From the IMG/VR virus record IMGVR_UViG_2602041671_000009: a DNA stretch of 26,300 nucleotides, one strand, 5' to 3'. The notes under the pieces are model-generated. The model ran no database searches. It was not told the DNA's origin and saw nothing but the letters and a program-made list of their open reading frames with translations. Origin of the DNA: a virus (lineage: Duplodnaviria > Heunggongvirae > Uroviricota > Caudoviricetes). Positions 1,427 to 16,489 of the stretch are shown piece by piece (the stretch's first letter is position 1; each line of letters begins with the position of its first letter). The position numbers and the translations under genes were made by a program.

Positions 1427-1732
1427 TCAATATACATTTTGCACCTTCGAGATAGTAATGACTGTTACTGTAACATGAGTTACAAACAGCTTCATACCCA
1501 GAGCTACTGATGTATCAACTCGATTCAACAATACCCGATATTTATTCCATGCCTCCAGCAACGATCTTTCTTCCTCCGTTGCGATTTCCAGATCTACAGC
1601 ATCCTGCAGTGGCGCAATATACTCACTGAATTCCTGGATGTAGAACTGTGTGGTGACGGTCTTCCAGCCATTCGGCTCCTGCTGTATCGAAGCATACCAG
1701 GCTATTTCAATATCGCTATGCTGCGGCAGCAT
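1427..1732 (-). CDS. tail fibre assembly (Tfa)-like small ORF, probable gene remnant
   Basis: 101-aa ORF whose central segment ([38 protein letters not shown]) is near-identical to the C-terminal domain of the Tfa at 4238-4813. Flanking residues are unrelated. Confidence 0.45.
1505..1622. repeat. direct repeat copy 1 (tfa 3' segment)
   Basis: About 120 bp aligns at roughly 85-90 percent with 4270-4388 in the same orientation; identical 40-bp core at 1567-1606 versus 4333-4372. Confidence 0.7.
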
Positions 1733-1871
1733 TTAACCCCTTGTAATTCATCGCCATAATTGATTTAATTCACAAATAAAACTATAACATGGTGAAATTA
1801 ATGAAAAAAACACAGATGATGGGGCTAAAATTTACACACCACTTACCCTAAAGCTTTATGACTGGTGGGTT

Positions 1872-2455
1872 TTGGGAGTATCAAATCGGCTTGCATGGGG
1901 ATGTCCTACAAAGGAACACCTTCTTCCACACTTTCTGGAACATTTAGGTAACAACCATCTGGATATTGGTGTTGGAACTGGGTTTTACCTTACTCACGTA
2001 CCTGAGAGTAGTCTGATATCTTTAATGGATTTGAACGAAGCTAGCCTGAACGCGGCATCTACAAGGCTGGGGAATCAAAAATTAAACATAAAATTAACCA
2101 TGATGTTTTTGAACCTTATCCCGCGGCGTTACATGGTCAATTTGATTCCATTTCCATGTTTTACCTTCTTCACTGCCTGCCTGGAAATATATCTACAAAA
2201 AGCTGTGTAATACGCAATGCGGCGCAGGCCTTAACTGACGATGGAACTCTATACGGAGCCACAATTCTTGGCGATGGAGTTGTGCACAATAGCTTCGGTC
2301 AAAAACTGATGCGCATTTACAATCAGAAAGGCATCTTTTCAAACACAAAAGATTCCGAAGAAGGCTTAACACATATACTCTCAGAGCATTTCGAGAATGT
2401 TAAAACCAAGGTTCAAGGTACTGTAGTAATGTTTTCCGCTTCAGGGAAAAAATAG
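1872..2455 (+). pseudogene. class I SAM-dependent methyltransferase, frameshifted
   Basis: ORF 1872-2210 carries LDIGVGTG (SAM-binding motif I) and an MDLNE acidic motif. ORF 2156-2455 in another frame continues with FDSISMFYLLHCLP and DGTLYGATIL. The second frame is open from 2045 (...NHDVFEPYP...), so the frames swap inside the A-rich run around 2077-2092. Confidence 0.45.
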
Positions 2456-3002
2456 CATCCAACCGCAGCACGTTCTTGCATAAGGCGTGTCTGCGGTTTT
2501 TCAACTATTCAGATACATCACTCCCATCACATTCATTCCTCCGCATCATAGGCATATAGGCTATATCACCTTGATATTTTTCTTCTTCAGATAAAAACTG
2601 TTATCTATGTATACTTTTAAACCCAATCCGTGTAGAGTCTCTGCATAAGATAGTTTGCAGTTGCCACTTCAGCTTGCGCCATAAACCGCCTGATTTTTGC
2701 CGCCACCTGTTAGCATTCCTGTATACCTGAAACGACAATGTTTATCTACGAACTTTAAGAACACCCAGGATAAAAATTGTCAACTATATCATATATAACA
2801 CATTACTAATTCGAGGCTATATGAACAGCATACTGATAATCACTTCTCTCCTTATCATATTCAGCATTTTTAGTCATGCCCTAATAAAATTAGGGATTGG
2901 CATATCCAATAACCCAGACAAAACCGATGTATAAGTCAACATATCCTGAATCAGACATACAATATCGCAATGAAAATCAATAATATTTTAAGGAATATCT
3001 TC

Positions 3003-3236
3003 ATGAAATCAAAAGACACCCTAAAGTGGTTCCCTGCGCAGCTTCCTGAAGTAAGAATTATCCTAGGGGATGCTGTAGTGGAAGTAGCAAAACAGGGAAG
3101 ACCTATCAATACCAGAACATTGCTTGATTACATTGAAGGAAACATAAAGAAAAAATCATGGCTGGATAACAAAGAATTATTACAAACAGCGATATCAGTT
3201 CTTAAAGACAACCAAAATTTAAATGGTAAAATGTAA
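3003..3236 (+). CDS. YdfK/YnaE-like small prophage protein (77 aa)
   Basis: ATG at 3003 preceded by AAGGAA about 9 nt upstream. Product MKSKDTLKWFPAQLPEVRIILGDAVVEVAKQG... matches my recollection of the Qin/Rac ydfK/ynaE products that sit next to pin genes. Long AT-rich region upstream. Confidence 0.55.
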   Translation: MKSKDTLKWFPAQLPEVRIILGDAVVEVAKQGRPINTRTLLDYIEGNIKKKSWLDNKELLQTAISVLKDNQNLNGKM

Positions 3237-3552
3237 TATAATAAACTTACTTTTTTATCATTTTTCCACTTTAACAACATTTTGCTCCACTTTTCCACGA
3301 TCAAACAACTTGAAATCTGGTTAAAATAACACGCAACACTATTCTTCTTCCTTGAGTCCGCCCGGAACTCGAAAAACAAACCGAGTTAAAGCCATTTTTC
3401 ACAAAATCGATTTTGGGTCTCACCAAAATTACGGGGTTGCATACGCATTCGTTTATTTTCGAACGTGTACATACAAATATGCACAAAAATAATCAAAATT
3501 ATTTTCTGAGATGCATTATGATATGAACACCAATTTCGTATAGAGTCTCACT

Positions 3553-4142
3553 ATGTCTCGAATTTTTGCTTACTGTCGGATATCAACGCTGGATCAGACC
3601 ATCGAAAATCAACGCCGGGAAATCGAAAGTGCAGGTTTTAAAATCAAACCTCAGCAAATAATCGAAGAACACATTAGCGGCTCAGCAGCAACCAGTGAGC
3701 GTCCTGGTTTTAACCGGTTGCTTGCTCGCCTGAAATGTGGTGATCAATTGATTGTGACAAAACTGGATCGCCTTGGTTGTAATGCAATGGATATCAGGAA
3801 AACAGTGGAACAACTGACCGAAACAGGTATCAGAGTGCATTGCTTAGCATTGGGGGGCATTGACCTGACCAGTCCAACAGGAAAAATGATGATGCACGTA
3901 ATTTCAGCAGTCGCTGAATTTGAACGAGACCTTTTACTTGAACGCACTCATTCCGGGATAGTAAGAGCCGCGGCGCAGGGAAACGTTTTGGTCGACCACC
4001 TGTGTTAAATGAAGAACAGAAACAGGTGGTATTCGAACGAATTAAGTCAGGTGTAAGTATAAGTGCCATTGCCCGGGAATTCAAAACCTCGCGGCAAACC
4101 ATTTTAAGAGCCAAAGCAAAACTTCAGACACCTGACATATAA
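3553..4142 (+). pseudogene. pin: serine recombinase / DNA invertase (PinR/PinQ-like), frameshifted
   Basis: ORF 3553-4008 encodes the catalytic domain (YCRISTLDQ with nucleophilic Ser, LDRLGCN...). The C-terminal HTH ([53 protein letters not shown]) is in a different frame from 4002 to TAA at 4140-4142. The frame break maps to the GGG/AAA run at 3978-3983. Confidence 0.7.
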
Positions 4143-4237
4143 AATAATCTCGGTGTGAGATGCTTTACGTCTTCCAAGCCCCCTTCCTTGCCGTAAATGG
4201 AAAGATACATCTAATTATAGAATTTATATGTTTTACC

Positions 4238-4813
4238 CTACGGCAGTGCTGGCCATTCAATATCCTGTGCAGTTGACGTATCAACACGGTTCAGCAACAC
4301 CCGATACTTTTTCCAGGCTTCCAGCAATGAGGTTTCTTCCTCCGTTGCGATTTCCAGATCTACAGCATCCTGAAGTGGCGCAATATGCTCACTGGCTACC
4401 TGCATCAGGCTGTTTTTTGTTTCTTCCGCCTCTCGGATCCGGAACAGTTTTTCTGCTTCTGCATCTTTCACCCAGGCTGTGCCGTTCCACTTCTGAAACT
4501 CCCCTTCCGGCGATAACCAGGTAACATTTTCCGGTAACGGACCGAGTTCAGAAATAAATAACGCGTCCCCTGACGCTACGTCATAAACCGTTTTACCCCG
4601 ATGGTCTTCAACGAGATGCCACGATGCCTTATCACTGTTGAAAACAGCCACAAAGCCAGCAGGAATATCTGGTGGTGCAATATCGGTACTGTTTGCTGGC
4701 AGACCTGTATGAGGCGGAATATATGCGTCACCTTCACCAATAAATTCATTAGTTCCGGCCAGCAGATTATAAATTTTTATGGTCCGTGGTTGTTCACTCA
4801 TTCTGAATGCCAT
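4238..4813 (-). CDS. tfa: tail fibre assembly protein Tfa (lambda-like)
   Basis: 191-aa [34 protein letters not shown]... through ...[29 protein letters not shown]. Matches lambda Tfa from memory. Start overlaps the stop of the upstream fibre ORF. Confidence 0.85.
4270..4388. repeat. direct repeat copy 2 (tfa 3' segment)
   Basis: Partner of 1505-1622; same orientation. Confidence 0.7.
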
Positions 4814-5448
4814 TATGCAAGCCTCACAATATAGTTAAATGCGATGTTTTTGACGGTGTTTTCCGCGTTACCAGCAGCGTTAACGGTGATGGTGTGTCCA
4901 TGTGAACCAATCGCAACGGAGTGCGTATGAGCACCAATACCGACAGTATGCGCGTGTGCACCTGCAGATGCTGCTGTGCCGGACAGTGAATGGCTATGAT
5001 TACCATCTGTACTGGTATTCGCTAACCACCCCGTAGACATACCTACTGAGCCTTGTACACCCCAGGTATTTTGACCTGAGCTTGTATAACCATATTGATA
5101 AGTATCTTTAAAAACACTGGGGTTAAATCGACGGCCATCTCTATGGCTGTGATTACCAGCTGCATTCGTGCTGCCACTTAAACTATGGGTATGCGCACCA
5201 GTGTTATTCGTGGATTTAGTGCCGTAATCAAACGACGATGTGGTTTTCGTCCCCAAATCCGTACTGGATGCGCTGGCGCTGTGGGTATGCGATTTAATGC
5301 CGTCCTGTTCCTGAGACAATACGGCCCGACCACTGGCAGGTTTGCCCTTAATCGTCCAGCCACGCATATCCACGATGGCTTCTTTTTCCGGTACATGCTG
5401 CACGGCGGTGATGGCATACGTGCCGTCGTCGTTCTCACGGATACTCAC
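4813..5448 (-). pseudogene. side tail fibre C-terminal portion fused to an internal J segment (chimeric remnant)
   Basis: 211-aa ORF starts [27 protein letters not shown] (recalled as internal to lambda host-specificity protein J), then continues with a histidine-rich HTHS/HSHS repeat region ending ...[11 protein letters not shown], typical of Stf-type fibre C-termini. Confidence 0.6.
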
Positions 5449-5801
5449 GCACCGAAGGTAAAGCGCAGACGGTCGATGTTTGCAGACGTAATGGTGCGGG
5501 TGATCGGCGTGTCATATTTCACTTCCGTACCCAGCACCGTCTCGGAGCCGGAGGATTCAAACCCCTCCGGCGGTGTCTGCTCCTGCTCACCGGCACGGAA
5601 CACCACCGTGACACCGGAGATGTTGGTATTCCCCTCAGTGTCCAGCACCGGCGTACTGTTCAGCAGCACGCTTTTTAATCCATCCACCGGACCTTCAACC
5701 GGCCCTTCGCTGATGGCATCGATCACACTCAGCAACTGCGTGGACTTCAGGTTGTCCTTCGCTTCGCGCGGGGTATGCCCCTTACTGCTTCCTTTACCCA
5801 T
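5445..5801 (-). pseudogene. J: host specificity protein J, N-terminal 118-codon fragment
   Basis: MGKGSSKGHTPREAKDNLKSTQLLSVIDAISEGPVEGPVDGLKSVLLNSTPVLDTEGNTNISGVTVVFRAGEQEQTPPEG... matches the lambda J N-terminus. Frame stops at 5445; J is over 1100 aa in lambda, so most of the gene is missing. Confidence 0.8.
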
Positions 5802-5861
5802 TCCTCACGCTCCATAAATGACAAAACCGCCCGCAGGCGGTTTCACATAAAACATTTTGCA

Positions 5862-6533
5862 TCAGCGACCAATCACCACAACCTGACCACCGTCCCCTTC
5901 GTCTGCCGTGCTGATCTCCTGAGAAACCACGCGTGACCCCACGCGCATTTCCCCGTACAGAACAGGCAGAACATTGCCCTGGGCAACCATGTTATCCAGT
6001 GAGGAGAAATAGGTGTTCTGCTTACCGTTATCCGTTGTCTGTGTACGGGGAGTTCTGGCTTTCGGTGCCAGCATCTGCGCCACACCACCGAGCACCATAC
6101 TGGCACCGAGAGAAAACAGGATGCCGGTCATACCACCGGCCCCAATGGCTGCCCCCCATGCTGCAAGGGTGGCTCCGGCGGTAAAGAATGATCCGGCAAT
6201 GGCGGCAGCCCCCAGGACAATCTGGAATACGCCACCTGACTTGGCCCCGGCGACTCTGGGAACAATATGAATCACAGCGCCATCAGGCAGAGTCTCATGT
6301 AACTGCGCCGTTAACCCGGACGTGCTGACGTCCCGCCCGGCAATCCGTACCTGATACCAGCCGTCGCTCAGTTTCTGACGAAACGCCGGGAGCTGTGTGG
6401 CCAGTGCCCGGATGGCTTCAGCCCCCGTTTTCACACGAAGGTCGATGCGGCGACCAAATCGTTGTAAATCCCCGTAAAGGCAGATGCGCGCCATGCCCGG
6501 TGACGCCAGAGGGAGTGTGTGCGTCGCTGCCAT
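5862..6533 (-). CDS. I: tail tip assembly protein I
   Basis: 223-aa ORF, MAATHTLPLASPGMARICLYGDLQRFGRRIDLRVKTGAEAIRALATQLPAFRQ..., lambda gpI-like with lambda-like K/I overlap. Confidence 0.85.
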   Translation of the reverse strand: MAATHTLPLASPGMARICLYGDLQRFGRRIDLRVKTGAEAIRALATQLPAFRQKLSDGWYQVRIAGRDVSTSGLTAQLHETLPDGAVIHIVPRVAGAKSGGVFQIVLGAAAIAGSFFTAGATLAAWGAAIGAGGMTGILFSLGASMVLGGVAQMLAPKARTPRTQTTDNGKQNTYFSSLDNMVAQGNVLPVLYGEMRVGSRVVSQEISTADEGDGGQVVVIGR

Positions 6534-7174
6534 TTGTCGGTGTACCTCTCTCGTTTGCTCAGTTGTTCAGGAATATGGTGCAGCAGCTCGCCGTCGCCGC
6601 AGTAAATTGCGGCGTGATTCGGCACCGATGAACCAAAACAGCACAGCAGCACATCGCCCGGCTGTGCCGCTGACAACGGCACCTGATACAGCCCCGTCGC
6701 CTCCAGATTATCCAGATAGAGATTCTGGCCGTTACGCCACCAGTCATCCTCACGATGAAAGTCCGGCATCTCAATCCCCGCCAGATGATAAGCATCCCGG
6801 AACAGTGTGTAACAGTCCGTCACACCGTGCTCAAAGCGCCGCCCGGTGAGATGCGGCACACAGCGGAACTTATGAATCGTCCCCCGGCAGACCAGCCACC
6901 ACGGCAAATCACTCTGCACCTGCAGCCGCCGGTCGGCCTCACTCAGCCAGGGCAGACCACCGGGGTGGCTGTGGACCAGCGCCACAATCTCACCCTGCAT
7001 TTCTGCCTGCAGCCAGTCTTCCGGCGACATACGGAAATACGCCTCCGGCTCACCGGAAATATTCACGCAGGGAAAATATCTTTCCCCCTCCGGCGTGCTT
7101 ACCACGAAGCCGCACGACTCCGCTGGCGCACATCGCCGGGCGTGCGCCAGAATCGCTGATTCTGTCTCTGTCAT
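6431..7174 (-). CDS. K: tail tip assembly protein K (JAB/MPN plus NlpC/P60-like)
   Basis: ORF with E...HSHPGG...S..D JAMM-type motif and a downstream Cys-containing hydrolase-like region. Lambda gpK-like. An alternative internal start (MSPEDWLQ, about 7030) is possible. Confidence 0.8.
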   Translation of the reverse strand: MTETESAILAHARRCAPAESCGFVVSTPEGERYFPCVNISGEPEAYFRMSPEDWLQAEMQGEIVALVHSHPGGLPWLSEADRRLQVQSDLPWWLVCRGTIHKFRCVPHLTGRRFEHGVTDCYTLFRDAYHLAGIEMPDFHREDDWWRNGQNLYLDNLEATGLYQVPLSAAQPGDVLLCCFGSSVPNHAAIYCGDGELLHHIPEQLSKRERYTDKWQRRTHSLWRHRAWRASAFTGIYNDLVAASTFV

Positions 7175-7179
7175 GGGAT

Positions 7180-7877
7180 TTACTGCGAAAGTTTGTTAAT
7201 GGAAAGGAAGCCGCCAAAGTTGCCGACGTTATTGCGGAACTTACAACCGCTCAGGCATTTGCTGCATTTATCCTTCGTGATATCGGACGTTGGCTGGTCA
7301 TATTCATCCGCGACAGCCGGACCGCTATAACCGCACTCGTCACCGCGATAGGTCCAGGTGCAGGTGTTGGCCAGCATGATACGTCCCGGAAAACAGCGCC
7401 ATCCGTTTCCGTCGGCGTGGACAGTACAAAAGAGGCACTGACCGCGCTCAGTTCGCTGCACTGCTCAATGCGCCAGCGGCTGATCACCTCCTGCTCCGGA
7501 TCGGCGTCACTGTTTCCGTTGACGAAGTTCACCGCATCCAGAAAACGGGCATAAACCTTACGCCTGACCACCGTTCCGCCGACCAGACTCTGCAGATCTT
7601 CCGCCATCCCGGTGACCATGCCATACAGGTTAGAAACCGTCAGCGTGGGGCGCGTACTGGTGCCTTTGCCATTCAGTTCGAAACCACTCCCCTGAATGGG
7701 ATACGCCTGATACTGTCGCCCCTGCCAGGTGACCGGCTCACCTTTTTCGTTCTGCTCATTACAGAAAAAATAACGTTCTCCACCAACCTCTGTCAGATCG
7801 ATTTCCCAGAGCACCACGCTGGCCGACTGCTCCGCACGGGTGCATTCATTCAGTGTTTCCTGTCGGATATCCTGCAT
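7180..7877 (-). pseudogene. L: minor tail protein L, frameshifted
   Basis: ORF 7251-7877 matches lambda L through ...TETDGAVF and then diverges. ORF 7180-7461 in another frame carries the rest (PGRIMLANTCTWTYRGDECGYSG...FLSINKLSQ). Frames swap at the A4 run at 7390-7393 (T-run on the coding strand). Confidence 0.8.
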
Positions 7878-8206
7878 CAGTTCACCACCTGTTCAAACTC
7901 TGCGCTGAACTCAACACGCAGCATACTGACCCGCGACGACCATTTTGCGCAGGTCACCTTTATCTGCCGGTAGCCATAAGGCGGCGTCCACAGAAAGGCC
8001 TTCCAGCCCCCGTGCTCAGCCAGAAACGACTCCAGCGCCGCGGCCTCCCAACGGGGAACAGAAAGCGTCACGCTGTACGTTTTCAGGTCAGTGTTCAGCC
8101 CGGCAGGCGCTCGCTGGGAATAGCCATCACCAAAGCGCACCTTTCTTACGGAAGGGGCCGAAGCCACATCCATACCGGGTTTCACTTTCCAGCGGAAGGT
8201 TTTCAT
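7877..8206 (-). CDS. M: minor tail protein M
   Basis: 109-aa ORF, MKTFRWKVKPGMDVASAPSVRKVRFGDGYSQRAPAGL...RVSMLRVEFSAEFEQVVN, lambda gpM-like. ATGA overlap with the upstream frame. Confidence 0.88.
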   Translation of the reverse strand: MKTFRWKVKPGMDVASAPSVRKVRFGDGYSQRAPAGLNTDLKTYSVTLSVPRWEAAALESFLAEHGGWKAFLWTPPYGYRQIKVTCAKWSSRVSMLRVEFSAEFEQVVN

Positions 8207-8436
8207 CGTCCACCTCCGGAGAACAGACCACCATCGCGCATCTGCCCGGTCACAACATCCATTGCCGCCTTACGGGCTACGTCATAAACAGCCTTCAGCG
8301 CCTGTGGCCCTAGCTGGCGACGTTGTGCCGCCTCCTCCAGTACCGCGAACTGACTTTCTGCCTTCCACAAATCCCGGCGCTGCTGGCTGATTTTCTCATT
8401 TGCTCCGGCATGCTTCTCCAGCGTCCGGAGTAGCCG
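8203..8436 (-). pseudogene. probable tape-measure (H) 3' remnant
   Basis: Open frame without ATG ending ...MRDGGLFSGGGR with its TGA overlapping the M start (ATGA), as expected for the gene upstream of M. Assignment to H is by position and partial recollection only. Confidence 0.4.
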
Positions 8437-9094
8437 TTATCCGTATCCTGAGCCGTCTGCAGGTTCAGTGAGTCACCCGGCATCAGGTGCGGTACTTTTG
8501 CGCCTCCCAGCCGGACCGGCGCTGCGGCGTAATACGCGGCAATTTCACCAATCCAGCCGGTCAGCCTTTCCCGCTGCTCCTGACTGTTCGCGCCCAGAAT
8601 AAAATCCATCGCTGACTGCGTATCCAGCTCACTCTCAATGGTGGCGGCATACATCGCCTTCACAATGGCGCTCTGCAGCTGCGTGTTCTGCAGCGTGTCG
8701 AGCATCTTCATCTGCTCCATCACGCTGTAAAACACATTTGCACCGCGAGTCTGCCCGTCCTCCACGGGTTCAAAAACGTGAATGAACGAGGCGCGCCCGC
8801 CGGGTAACTCACGGGGTATCCATGTCCATTTCTGCGGCATCCAGCCAGGATACCCGTCCTCGCTGACGTAATATCCCAGCGCCGCACCGCTGTCATTAAT
8901 CTGCACACCGGCACGGCAGTTCCGGCTGTCGCCGGTATTGTTCGGGTTGCTGATGCGCTTCGGGCTGACCATCCGGAACTGTGTCCGGAAAAGCCGCGAC
9001 GAACTGGTATCCAGGTGGCCTGAACGAACAGTTCACCGTTAAAGGCGTGCATGGCCACACCTTCCCGAATCATCATGGTAACCGGCATATTCAC
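8428..9094 (-). pseudogene. B: portal protein B, fragmented (N-terminus missing, internal frameshift, 3' end lost)
   Basis: ORF 8720-9094 contains MMIREGVAMHAFNGELFVQATW and ORF 8310-8972 contains MVSPKRISNPNNTGDSRNCRAGVQIN...QTAQDTDNGYS, both matching internal lambda gpB. Frames swap at a GG run near 9011-9012. Only about 50 bp separate W from the first B fragment, so the B N-terminus is absent. Confidence 0.75.
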
Positions 9095-14804: not shown

Positions 14805-15301
14805 AACCCCACCTCGCAGACAAAGCGGGTGTAAATTGAGGGAATACAACGTATCGCAAAAAAGCAGAAACGTAACTGACTCCGAGTCAGTGAATAACTC
14901 AGGTATTGAGTTATCAGCTAATATCGAGACTCAAAAAATGGAAAAACCAGCTCGACGGCGGGTTTAAGCTGTGTGACGAAGTAACCACTCTTAACAGCAT
15001 AACCAATTTTTTACGTACGTAAACCACTGAATGATATTTATGAGAATGCTACCGAGTGTTCAAAACATCACCACAAATACATAAGAAAACCTCAACAAAT
15101 AACCAATAAATAATTTCCAGTGTTATTTTTAGCCGGTTTAAATTAAATAGACGAATTATAGAACCACCATAAATAACAGCCATTAATATAAATTAGCTAA
15201 TAGATTTATTTTTGTTCAAATAAGAGCCATAAATAGGTTTCGATAGAAAAAGTTCAGATAAAAATAGAGATCTACTTCACAAATTAAATGAGAAACTAAA
15301 A

Positions 15302-15321
15302 CTTACATCTTGAAATAATCA
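15302..15321 (+). promoter_or_regulatory. possible OmpR-box-like element upstream of the porin gene
   Basis: CTTACATCTTGAAATAATCA resembles ompC-type OmpR sites (TTTACATTTTGAAACATCTA) as I recall them. Weak, pattern-based. Confidence 0.25.
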
Positions 15322-15391
15322 CATTGATTAGATGAATATTTATCGCGCAGTGACATCATTTTTTAATAATAGTTCAAAAAAAGGGCTCACG

Positions 15392-16489
15392 ATGAAAAAA
15401 TTAACAGTGGCAATTTCTGCTGTAGCTGCATCAGTACTGATGGCGATGTCTGCTCAGGCAGCTGAAATTTATAATAAAGACAGTAACAAGCTGGATCTGT
15501 ACGGGAAAGTTAATGCCAAGCACTACTTTTCCTCTAACGATGCAGATGATGGTGATACTACTTATGTTCGTCTGGGCTTCAAAGGCGAAACCCAAATCAA
15601 CGATCAGCTGACTGGTTTCGGTCAGTGGGAATATGAATTCAAAGGCAACCGCGCTGAATCTCAAGGTTCCTCCAAAGACAAAACCCGTCTTGCATTTGCA
15701 GGCCTGAAATTCGGTGACTACGGCTCAATCGATTACGGCCGTAACTACGGTGTAGCATACGACATCGGTGCGTGGACTGACGTTCTGCCAGAATTCGGTG
15801 GCGATACCTGGACCCAAACAGATGTGTTCATGACTGGTCGCACCACTGGTGTTGCAACCTATCGTAACAACGACTTCTTTGGTCTGGTTGATGGTCTGAA
15901 CTTTGCTGCTCAGTACCAAGGCAAAAACGATCGTAGCGATTTCGATAACTACACCGAAGGTAACGGTGATGGCTTCGGTTTCTCTGCTACCTATGAATAC
16001 GAAGGATTCGGTATCGGTGCAACTTATGCGAAATCTGATCGTACCGACACTCAAGTTAATGCAGGGAAAGTTCTTCCTGAAGTATTTGCTTCCGGTAAAA
16101 ATGCAGAAGTTTGGGCCGCAGGTCTGAAATATGACGCTAACAACATTTACCTGGCCACTACCTATTCTGAAACCCAGAATATGACTGTATTTGCTGATCA
16201 CTTCGTTGCTAATAAAGCTCAAAACTTCGAAGCTGTTGCACAATATCAGTTCGATTTCGGTCTGCGTCCGTCCGTTGCTTACCTGCAATCTAAAGGTAAG
16301 GATCTTGGAGTATGGGGCGATCAGGACTTAGTCAAATATGTTGATGTAGGTGCAACCTATTACTTCAACAAAAATATGTCTACTTTCGTTGATTACAAAA
16401 TCAACCTGCTTGACAAAAATGACTTCACTAAAGCACTCGGTGTAAGCACTGATGACATCGTTGCTGTAGGTCTGGTTTACCAGTTCTAA
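15392..16489 (+). CDS. OmpC-family general porin (prophage-encoded, NmpC/Lc-like)
   Basis: ATG at 15392 with AAGGG upstream. Signal peptide [23 protein letters not shown], mature N-terminus [18 protein letters not shown]-terminal ...VGLVYQF. The ORF-track start at 15332 adds a non-native N-extension. Confidence 0.88.

Follow-up and report, generated by a model that had tools for sequence, protein, structure and literature searches.

The locus described here is best compared with two tail proteins of bacteriophage lambda and with the tail remnants of the cryptic prophages of Escherichia coli K-12. The host-specificity protein gpJ of lambda (TipJ family, PDB 8iyk) is a single-frame protein of about 1,130 amino acids (aa), composed of an N-terminal hub, a central fibre and a C-terminal receptor-binding domain, and its gene stands directly after gene I. 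Side tail fibres of the Stf/gp37 type possess an N-terminal tail-attachment domain and a shaft, end in a needle with HxH metal-binding motifs that is homologous to the tip of T4 gp37, and require a cognate assembly chaperone, whose gene (tfa) directly follows; in lambda PaPa the fibre is encoded by orf-401/orf-314. In K-12, late genes of this kind persist as stfR/tfaR/pinR in Rac, stfQ'/tfaQ/pinQ in Qin and tfaD/tfaX in DLP12. Our analysis concerns a stretch of 26,300 nucleotides (nt) from IMG/VR virus record IMGVR_UViG_2602041671_000009 (hereafter the window), in which remnants of J and stf are joined to each other directly upstream of tfa (positions 4,238 to 5,801). The stretch belongs to a defective lambda-like prophage of E. 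coli O104:H21 (ST-672).

We conclude that the J-stf region of this prophage is almost certainly the non-functional scar of illegitimate, microhomology-mediated deletion in the late operon. Breakpoints, microhomologies, deleted content and frame consequences were read from base-level three-way alignments with lambda (NC_001416) and with an apparently complete prophage of strain GE3, which occupies the same chromosomal site, has the same right-hand neighbours and carries J (3414 bp), lom (600 bp), stf (2961 bp, 986 aa) and a gene for an identical Tfa protein. The elements of the scar are as follows.

5445..5801, minus strand: J stub, 118 aa; J codons 1-117, then Ala and TGA from the frameshift
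5450..5451, minus strand: junction 1, with TG microhomology
5368..5449, minus strand: J island, 82 nt, J nt 1719-1800
5367..5370, minus strand: junction 2, with GATA microhomology
4813..5448, minus strand: chimeric open reading frame (ORF) of 211 aa; 27 aa of J and the 184-aa C-terminus of Stf

Window 6100..5450 aligns with lambda 15206..15856, that is the 3' end of I and J nt 1-352, at 98.8% nucleotide identity; the J part of this match occupies window 5801..5450 and stops at 5450. Residues 1-117 of the stub agree with lambda J 1-117 at 116 of 117 positions (E-value 5e-71; PDB 8iyk_J/9e7m), and the Pfam domain FNIII-A_GpJ starts at residue 86. At junction 1, a TG is common to J nt 351-352 and J nt 1717-1718, and the sequence resumes at J nt 1719. 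The deletion thus comprises J nt 353-1718 (1366 bp) and shifts the frame, because its length is not a multiple of three; the stub ends ...FTFG-A-TGA. Its TGA overlaps the GTG of the chimeric ORF as GTGA (window 5445-5448), which here results incidentally from the J sequence TGC GTG AGT in combination with the frameshift; such an arrangement can support translational re-initiation. Like gpJ, the stub is homologous to the N-terminal hub from J residue 1 and is encoded directly after I. Unlike gpJ, the locus retains only 144 of about 1,132-1,137 codons, in two reading frames, and the C-terminal half including the receptor-binding end is deleted, so that the single-frame protein with central fibre and receptor-binding domain is not present. 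As the ORF ends at 118 aa and J nt 353-1718 and 1801-3414 are absent, we classify it as a J pseudogene fragment and not as a member of the TipJ family; RefSeq labels it 'host specificity protein J, incomplete, missing C-terminus'.

The island between the two junctions corresponds to J codons 574-600, the 27 codons with which the 211-aa ORF begins. Over 88 nt (window 5454..5367), it is 96.6% identical to lambda J nt 1714-1801 (E-value 3e-37), the segment is 98.9% identical to J of GE3, and in a search against solved structures ORF residues 2-28 match lambda J residues 575-601. At GATA (window 5370..5367), the J sequence jumps to stf nt 2404. Compared with GE3, 4754 bp are missing from J nt 1801 to stf nt 2403/2406: the 3' 1.6 kb of J (nt 1801-3414), lom in its entirety and the 5' 2.4 kb of stf. 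Junction 2 preserves the codon phase (0 on either side), and J codon 600 (GAT) is thus joined in frame to Stf codon 802/803; the equivalent point in lambda is codon 114 of orf-314, and the Stf-derived part is homologous to orf-314 from there onward. We also considered that the deleted segments had moved to another place, and rejected it: blastn and tblastn searches of the full 26.3-kb window brought up no further pieces of J, lom or stf. The matches that define the elements of the scar have E-values from 1e-14 to 0, far beyond chance. One diagnostic sequence was derived for each junction (CTTTACCTTCGGTGCGTGAGTATCCGTG and GCCATCGTGGATATGCGTGGCTGGAC).

A first-pass annotation of the window, made from the sequence alone, had anticipated much of this picture. 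It described a stub of the first 117 J codons, a frame break behind it, a histidine-rich fibre C-terminus ending NYIVRLA and an intact tfa next to the chimera, and it deduced the loss of the J receptor-binding region, lom and the 5' part of stf; the alignments with lambda and GE3 agree on each of these points, with the frame break placed at the 1366-bp deletion at window 5450. Its estimate of about 26 codons of internal J was right in kind and one codon short. Its single J-Stf junction has to be revised: the chimera is real, but the alignment with lambda which it proposed maps two junctions to the base instead of one, the additional one being the deletion inside J.

Residues 28-211 of the chimeric ORF are identical to GE3 Stf 803-986, including the C-terminus NYIVRLA. 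The ORF carries 7 HxH motifs and 15 histidines as well as the Pfam Phage_fiber repeat, and its residues 23-211 match the receptor-binding tip of T4 gp37 (PDB 2xgf_A, E-value 5e-56), the alignment beginning at residue 69 of the 2xgf chain. We take this chain to start at gp37 residue 785, in which case chain residue 69 corresponds to about gp37 853. The gp37 tip consists of the collar D10 (811-881 and 1010-1026) and an inserted needle D11 (882-1009), which is held by seven histidine-bound iron atoms (PMC6957217); the seven HxH motifs of the ORF resemble these seven iron sites in number. On this basis, the whole needle and the C-terminal collar strand appear to be kept, while the first ~42 collar (D10) residues would be lost if the 2xgf chain starts at 785. 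The likeness to Stf of lambda and GE3 (986 aa) thus comprises the C-terminal 184 residues with tfa next to them. The difference is that 27 residues of J replace the N-terminal 802 residues of Stf, i.e. attachment domain and shaft, together with the start of the collar; the window contains nothing of stf nt 1-2403. Because the shaft/attachment region and the start of the collar are gone, the fragment could not be mounted on a tail. No Shine-Dalgarno sequence is recognisable ahead of the GTG of the ORF or of an internal ATG. The contrary case named in the first-pass annotation, a complete and conserved fibre gene without J-derived sequence, is ruled out by the match of the first 27 codons to J 574-600 and by identity to Stf 803-986 only; the RefSeq annotation (Prokaryotic Genome Annotation Pipeline, PGAP) likewise calls the product 'hypothetical protein, missing N-terminus'. 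In the draft genome of CFSAN002237, the same ORF is misnamed 'short-chain fatty acid transporter' (GenBank ERF97564.1), and this wrong name recurs on several other Stf C-terminal fragments in protein clusters, a propagated misannotation of the histidine-rich fibre tip.

Around the scar, the gene order is that of a lambda-like tail module.

8206..7877, minus strand: M (ORF list)
7877..7179, minus strand: L (ORF list), with a false frameshift at 7393; intact in RefSeq
7174..6431, minus strand: K (ORF list)
5862..6533, minus strand: I, tail assembly, intact, adjoining the J stub upstream (Pfam Lambda_tail_I, E-value 1e-28)
4238..4813, minus strand: tfa, tail fibre assembly chaperone, 191 aa, intact (Pfam Caudo_TAP, E-value 3e-44)
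3553..4142, plus strand: pin-type serine invertase, convergent with tfa (Pfam Resolvase, E-value 5.5e-37)

Within the I ORF, RefSeq places a 190-aa tail assembly protein (WP_000847666.1), which has the same accession in the intact GE3 prophage. The tfa gene is 92.9% identical to that of lambda at the nucleotide level, and its product (WP_000885616.1) bears the same accession in intact prophages; it lies directly downstream of the stf remnant, as expected of the cognate chaperone gene of a Stf/gp37-type fibre, and its start overlaps the stop of the remnant (TAATG). In the finished genome, pin is intact (196 aa, WP_000086514.1); in the window, a homopolymer error of one base at 3969 makes it look split. 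A second, fragmentary tfa gene, labelled 'tail fiber assembly protein, missing N-terminus', follows after pin, ydfK, ynaM and a methyltransferase gene; the two tfa genes resemble the tfaD/tfaX pair of K-12 DLP12. A 121-bp direct repeat, 88% identical, is found at window 1508-1628 and 4274-4394. The 60-bp spacer between I and J, situated in the stretch that is 98.8% identical to lambda, contains a GC-rich hairpin at about window 5824-5843 (plus strand, AAACCGCC-CGC-AGGCGGTTT).

According to RefSeq, the prophage is integrated in the finished genome next to the tRNA-Arg gene argU, i.e. at the DLP12 site; intD marks one end, ompT lies past the opposite end, and the interior holds quuD, a porin gene, essD/rrrD/rzpD, bor and nohD, an arrangement that assigns it to the DLP12 family. 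It shares the chromosomal site and the order argU-intD ... nohD ... ompT with DLP12 of K-12, and with DLP12, Rac and Qin the tfa-pin-ydfK-ynaM neighbourhood and a way of decaying in which internal deletions have truncated the late genes. It differs from K-12 DLP12 in that a larger share of the tail module survives (M, L, K, I and the J stub), and from the K-12 cryptic prophages in having breakpoints known from the O104:H21 lineage only. With GE3 as the reference, at least three more deletion scars can be counted in this prophage.

Window 9079-9084: scar within portal, about 326 bp lost, GTTA-type microhomology
Window 8426-8431: scar from portal to H (tape-measure gene), about 8.1 kb lost, ACTCCG microhomology
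Window 8244-8311: scar at the 3' end of H, about 0.9 kb lost, followed by a diverged patch

These three scars show 4-6 bp of microhomology at those joins that are clean. The 8.1-kb deletion takes all head and tail-tube genes, and since head, tail-tube and tape-measure genes are gone from the prophage, no particle is left to carry a fibre. In RefSeq, incomplete pseudogenes are recorded for terminase (which is truncated), for portal, for J and for the stf remnant. Among complete genomes, the three extra scars are private to the O104:H21 strain; we therefore rejected the idea that they are older and shared with strains that keep an intact J-stf region.

How widely the junctions occur was examined with a 231-bp probe covering both of them. 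Among 5,426 complete E. coli genomes, a match in a single piece was obtained in two records only, which, judging from the strain designations, we take to be the same outbreak strain sequenced twice. Neither junction occurs alone in these genomes or in 50,697 phage records, and the phage records contain no copy of either; junction 2 is likewise absent from the metagenome contigs of the Joint Genome Institute (JGI) and from the GTDB species representatives. Both junctions together were found in 9 loci from 8 assemblies (AUQB01, CP009106.2, CP023541.1, JXWH01 and the Logan assemblies of SRR3971178, SRR5805592, SRR23707369 and SRR5912122), and every carrier of one has the other. The exact 118-aa and 211-aa products are on record in AUQB01, JXWH01 and the four Logan assemblies. 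Carriers include isolates of the 1994 Montana outbreak (PMC3790099). Probably all of them, the sequencing runs with the identical sequence included, belong to one clonal lineage. The first-pass annotation had called the chimera unusual and suggested checking the junction in related strains. This check bears the statement out for the exact allele, whose two junctions are confined to one strain among the complete genomes, but not for the class, which is commonplace: the best hits by themselves already yielded three other alleles of it.

These alleles, too, are deletions within J or between J and stf beside the same tfa/pin. In strain H3 and six others (7 complete genomes), at the DLP12 site, the join runs from J nt 1780 to stf nt 2028 across an overlap of 6 bp; in strain Z217, at the Rac site, it runs from J nt 466 to stf nt 1763 across 2 bp; and in strain 1916D18, a deletion inside J connects nt 647 to nt 1464, the overlap being 13 bp. 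In the coordinates of these strains' own loci, the breakpoints are as follows.

H3: 5974-5979
Z217-2: 4664-4665
1916D18: 4363-4375

The kind of event is the same as in the window; the difference is that neither of the window's junctions is present. Because the breakpoints differ, the three alleles represent separate events, and the independent J::stf and J-internal junctions show that decay of this type has happened repeatedly. H3 moreover has a holin remnant joined straight to the end of gene I. The J breakpoint of H3 (1780) lies 20 nt from that of junction 2 (1800); we do not accept a deletion hotspot here, given the ascertainment bias, as the H3-type allele ranked high because it holds the J island used as query. 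Its stf breakpoint is about 376 bp away from that of the window, and the microhomology differs.

The window itself comes from an error-prone draft. It matches the chromosomes of E. coli 94-3024 (NZ_CP009106.2) and O104:H21 CFSAN002236 (NZ_CP023541.1), and it equals AUQB01000011.1 (CFSAN002237) base for base, indels included, over the 6.6 kb and 6.4 kb compared; the CFSAN002237 draft was sequenced by Ion Torrent (PMC3790099). Over 12 kb, it differs from the finished NZ_CP009106.2 by seven single-base deletions and no substitution. They all sit within short homopolymer runs (window 1077, 1196, 1810, 2066, 3969, 7393 and 9012) and cause false frameshifts in pin (3969), L (7393), the portal remnant and the genes of a methyltransferase and an alpha/beta hydrolase; in RefSeq, these genes are intact except for the portal remnant, a pseudogene. 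Window 4101-6100 contains none of the seven indels and is 100% identical in the two finished genomes. Hence the frame break in J is not a sequencing error.

An assembly artefact, in which collapsed repeats of the several lambdoid prophages of a Shiga toxin-producing E. coli (STEC) genome give false J/J and J/stf joins, might be suspected from the error-prone Ion Torrent draft with its seven homopolymer indels (PMC3790099) and from the fact that J and stf sequences are present at 5-6 sites (median) in an E. coli genome. It is hardly conceivable, however: positions 4101-6100 are free of indels and identical in two finished genomes, the draft JXWH01 and four Logan assemblies of separate Sequence Read Archive (SRA) runs, the 2-4 bp shared at the joins are far too short for a mis-join by an assembler, and junctions that are identical in eight assemblies exclude such an origin. 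A deletion scar accounts for what is observed: the locus is collinear with the intact reference, the breaks are sharp, with 2 bp (TG) and 4 bp (GATA) of microhomology compared with 4-6 bp at the three other scars, the reading frame and essential domains are lost, and the prophage lacks everything from portal through H and has a truncated terminase. The ancestor would have had the order I-J-lom-stf-tfa with convergent pin, as in GE3 at the same site. At junction 1, J nt 353-1718 would have been removed across the TG overlap, so that J ends after 117 native codons; at junction 2, 4754 bp would have been removed across GATA, fusing J codon 600 to Stf 802/803. Replication slippage, template switching or RecA-independent illegitimate recombination could be the mechanism. 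A deletion mediated by the Pin invertase was considered, without a scan for crossover sites, and set aside; the breakpoints share just 2-4 bp. Two sequential events are probably to be preferred to one complex event; the complete genomes and phage records yielded no intermediate that would fix their number and order. In a one-step rearrangement, a template switch with two jumps (from J 352 to J 1719, copying of 82 nt, then to stf 2404) would have led to the same end product and the same lack of function; the history alone differs. The co-occurrence of both junctions in all 9 loci and 8 assemblies, with neither alone in the complete genomes, points in this direction, as do joins of 2 and 4 bp, typical of template switching, and the mere 82 nt left between deletions of 1.37 kb and 4.75 kb, for which we estimate a chance of about 5% if the right end of an independent deletion falls at random within the 1.8-kb J remnant. 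Yet co-occurrence is expected under either history if the carriers are clonal, as they probably are, and at least three other separate deletions demonstrate that repeated independent deletions did happen in this prophage. We regard the one-step history as possible, but clearly the less probable of the two.

Four observations speak against a scar devoid of function: junction 2 is in frame, for which the chance is 1 in 3; the GTGA overlap of stop and start could permit translational re-initiation; tfa is intact, and with it the chaperone on which the folding of such a needle depends; and slightly longer C-terminal fragments of gp37 fold as trimers if co-expressed with chaperones (PMC6957217). 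They leave some room for a residual function, and none of them contradicts a scar. In addition, the flanks are nearly identical to the intact GE3 prophage (99.85% identity, 1 mismatch over 5.4 kb) and therefore leave no room for a test of purifying selection on the remnant. Carried further, these observations would imply a retained module, in which a J27-Stf184 protein is made by termination and re-initiation at GTGA and folded by Tfa, and the stf'-tfa-pin cassette is kept, e.g. for binding an outer-membrane receptor or as a reservoir of receptor-binding tips for superinfecting lambdoid phages. The intact pin and all seven HxH metal-site motifs would fit, recombination of lambda with the stf/tfa genes of Rac and Qin, both defective prophages, is documented (PMC3945230), and several independent deletion alleles keep the 3' end of stf together with tfa and pin. 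The last point is a selection artefact, because the alleles were found by similarity to the very parts they have in common (the 3' end of stf and tfa). Against such a module stand the lack of a recognisable Shine-Dalgarno sequence before the GTG or the internal ATG, the loss of the Stf attachment domain and, if the 2xgf chain indeed starts at 785 as we presume, of the first ~42 D10 residues, a prophage without head, tube and tape-measure genes, and the confinement of the allele to one lineage; a reservoir role, for its part, needs DNA homology only and not this junction. We consider a retained module very improbable, and the fragments are predicted to be without function. Even taken jointly, the two departures from sequential, functionless decay – a single multi-jump event resembling microhomology-mediated break-induced replication (MMBIR) or fork stalling and template switching (FoSTeS), or else a J-Stf needle translated via GTGA and kept with Tfa as a receptor-binding module – are in our opinion rather unlikely.

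What remains is a pseudogene scar in a prophage, ordinary and of a familiar type, whose parts RefSeq already flags as pseudogenes. The RefSeq entries 'J, incomplete' and 'hypothetical protein, missing N-terminus' are the two halves of this one deletion scar, and the GenBank name 'short-chain fatty acid transporter' for the 211-aa ORF is wrong. For practical purposes, the junctions constitute a lineage-specific marker of the O104:H21 Montana-outbreak clone, with an expected polymerase chain reaction (PCR) product from I to tfa of about 2 kb vs about 8 kb. If the single event were true, the locus would be a datable example of a complex one-step rearrangement in prophage decay. For the biology of these prophages, the finding adds one more documented case of decay by short-microhomology deletion, and its significance reaches little beyond housekeeping. 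The DNA of the stf tip, tfa and pin could still pass to superinfecting lambdoid phages by homologous recombination, independent of the junction, just as stf/tfa of Rac and Qin have been shown to act as homologous recombination donors to lambda (PMC3945230).

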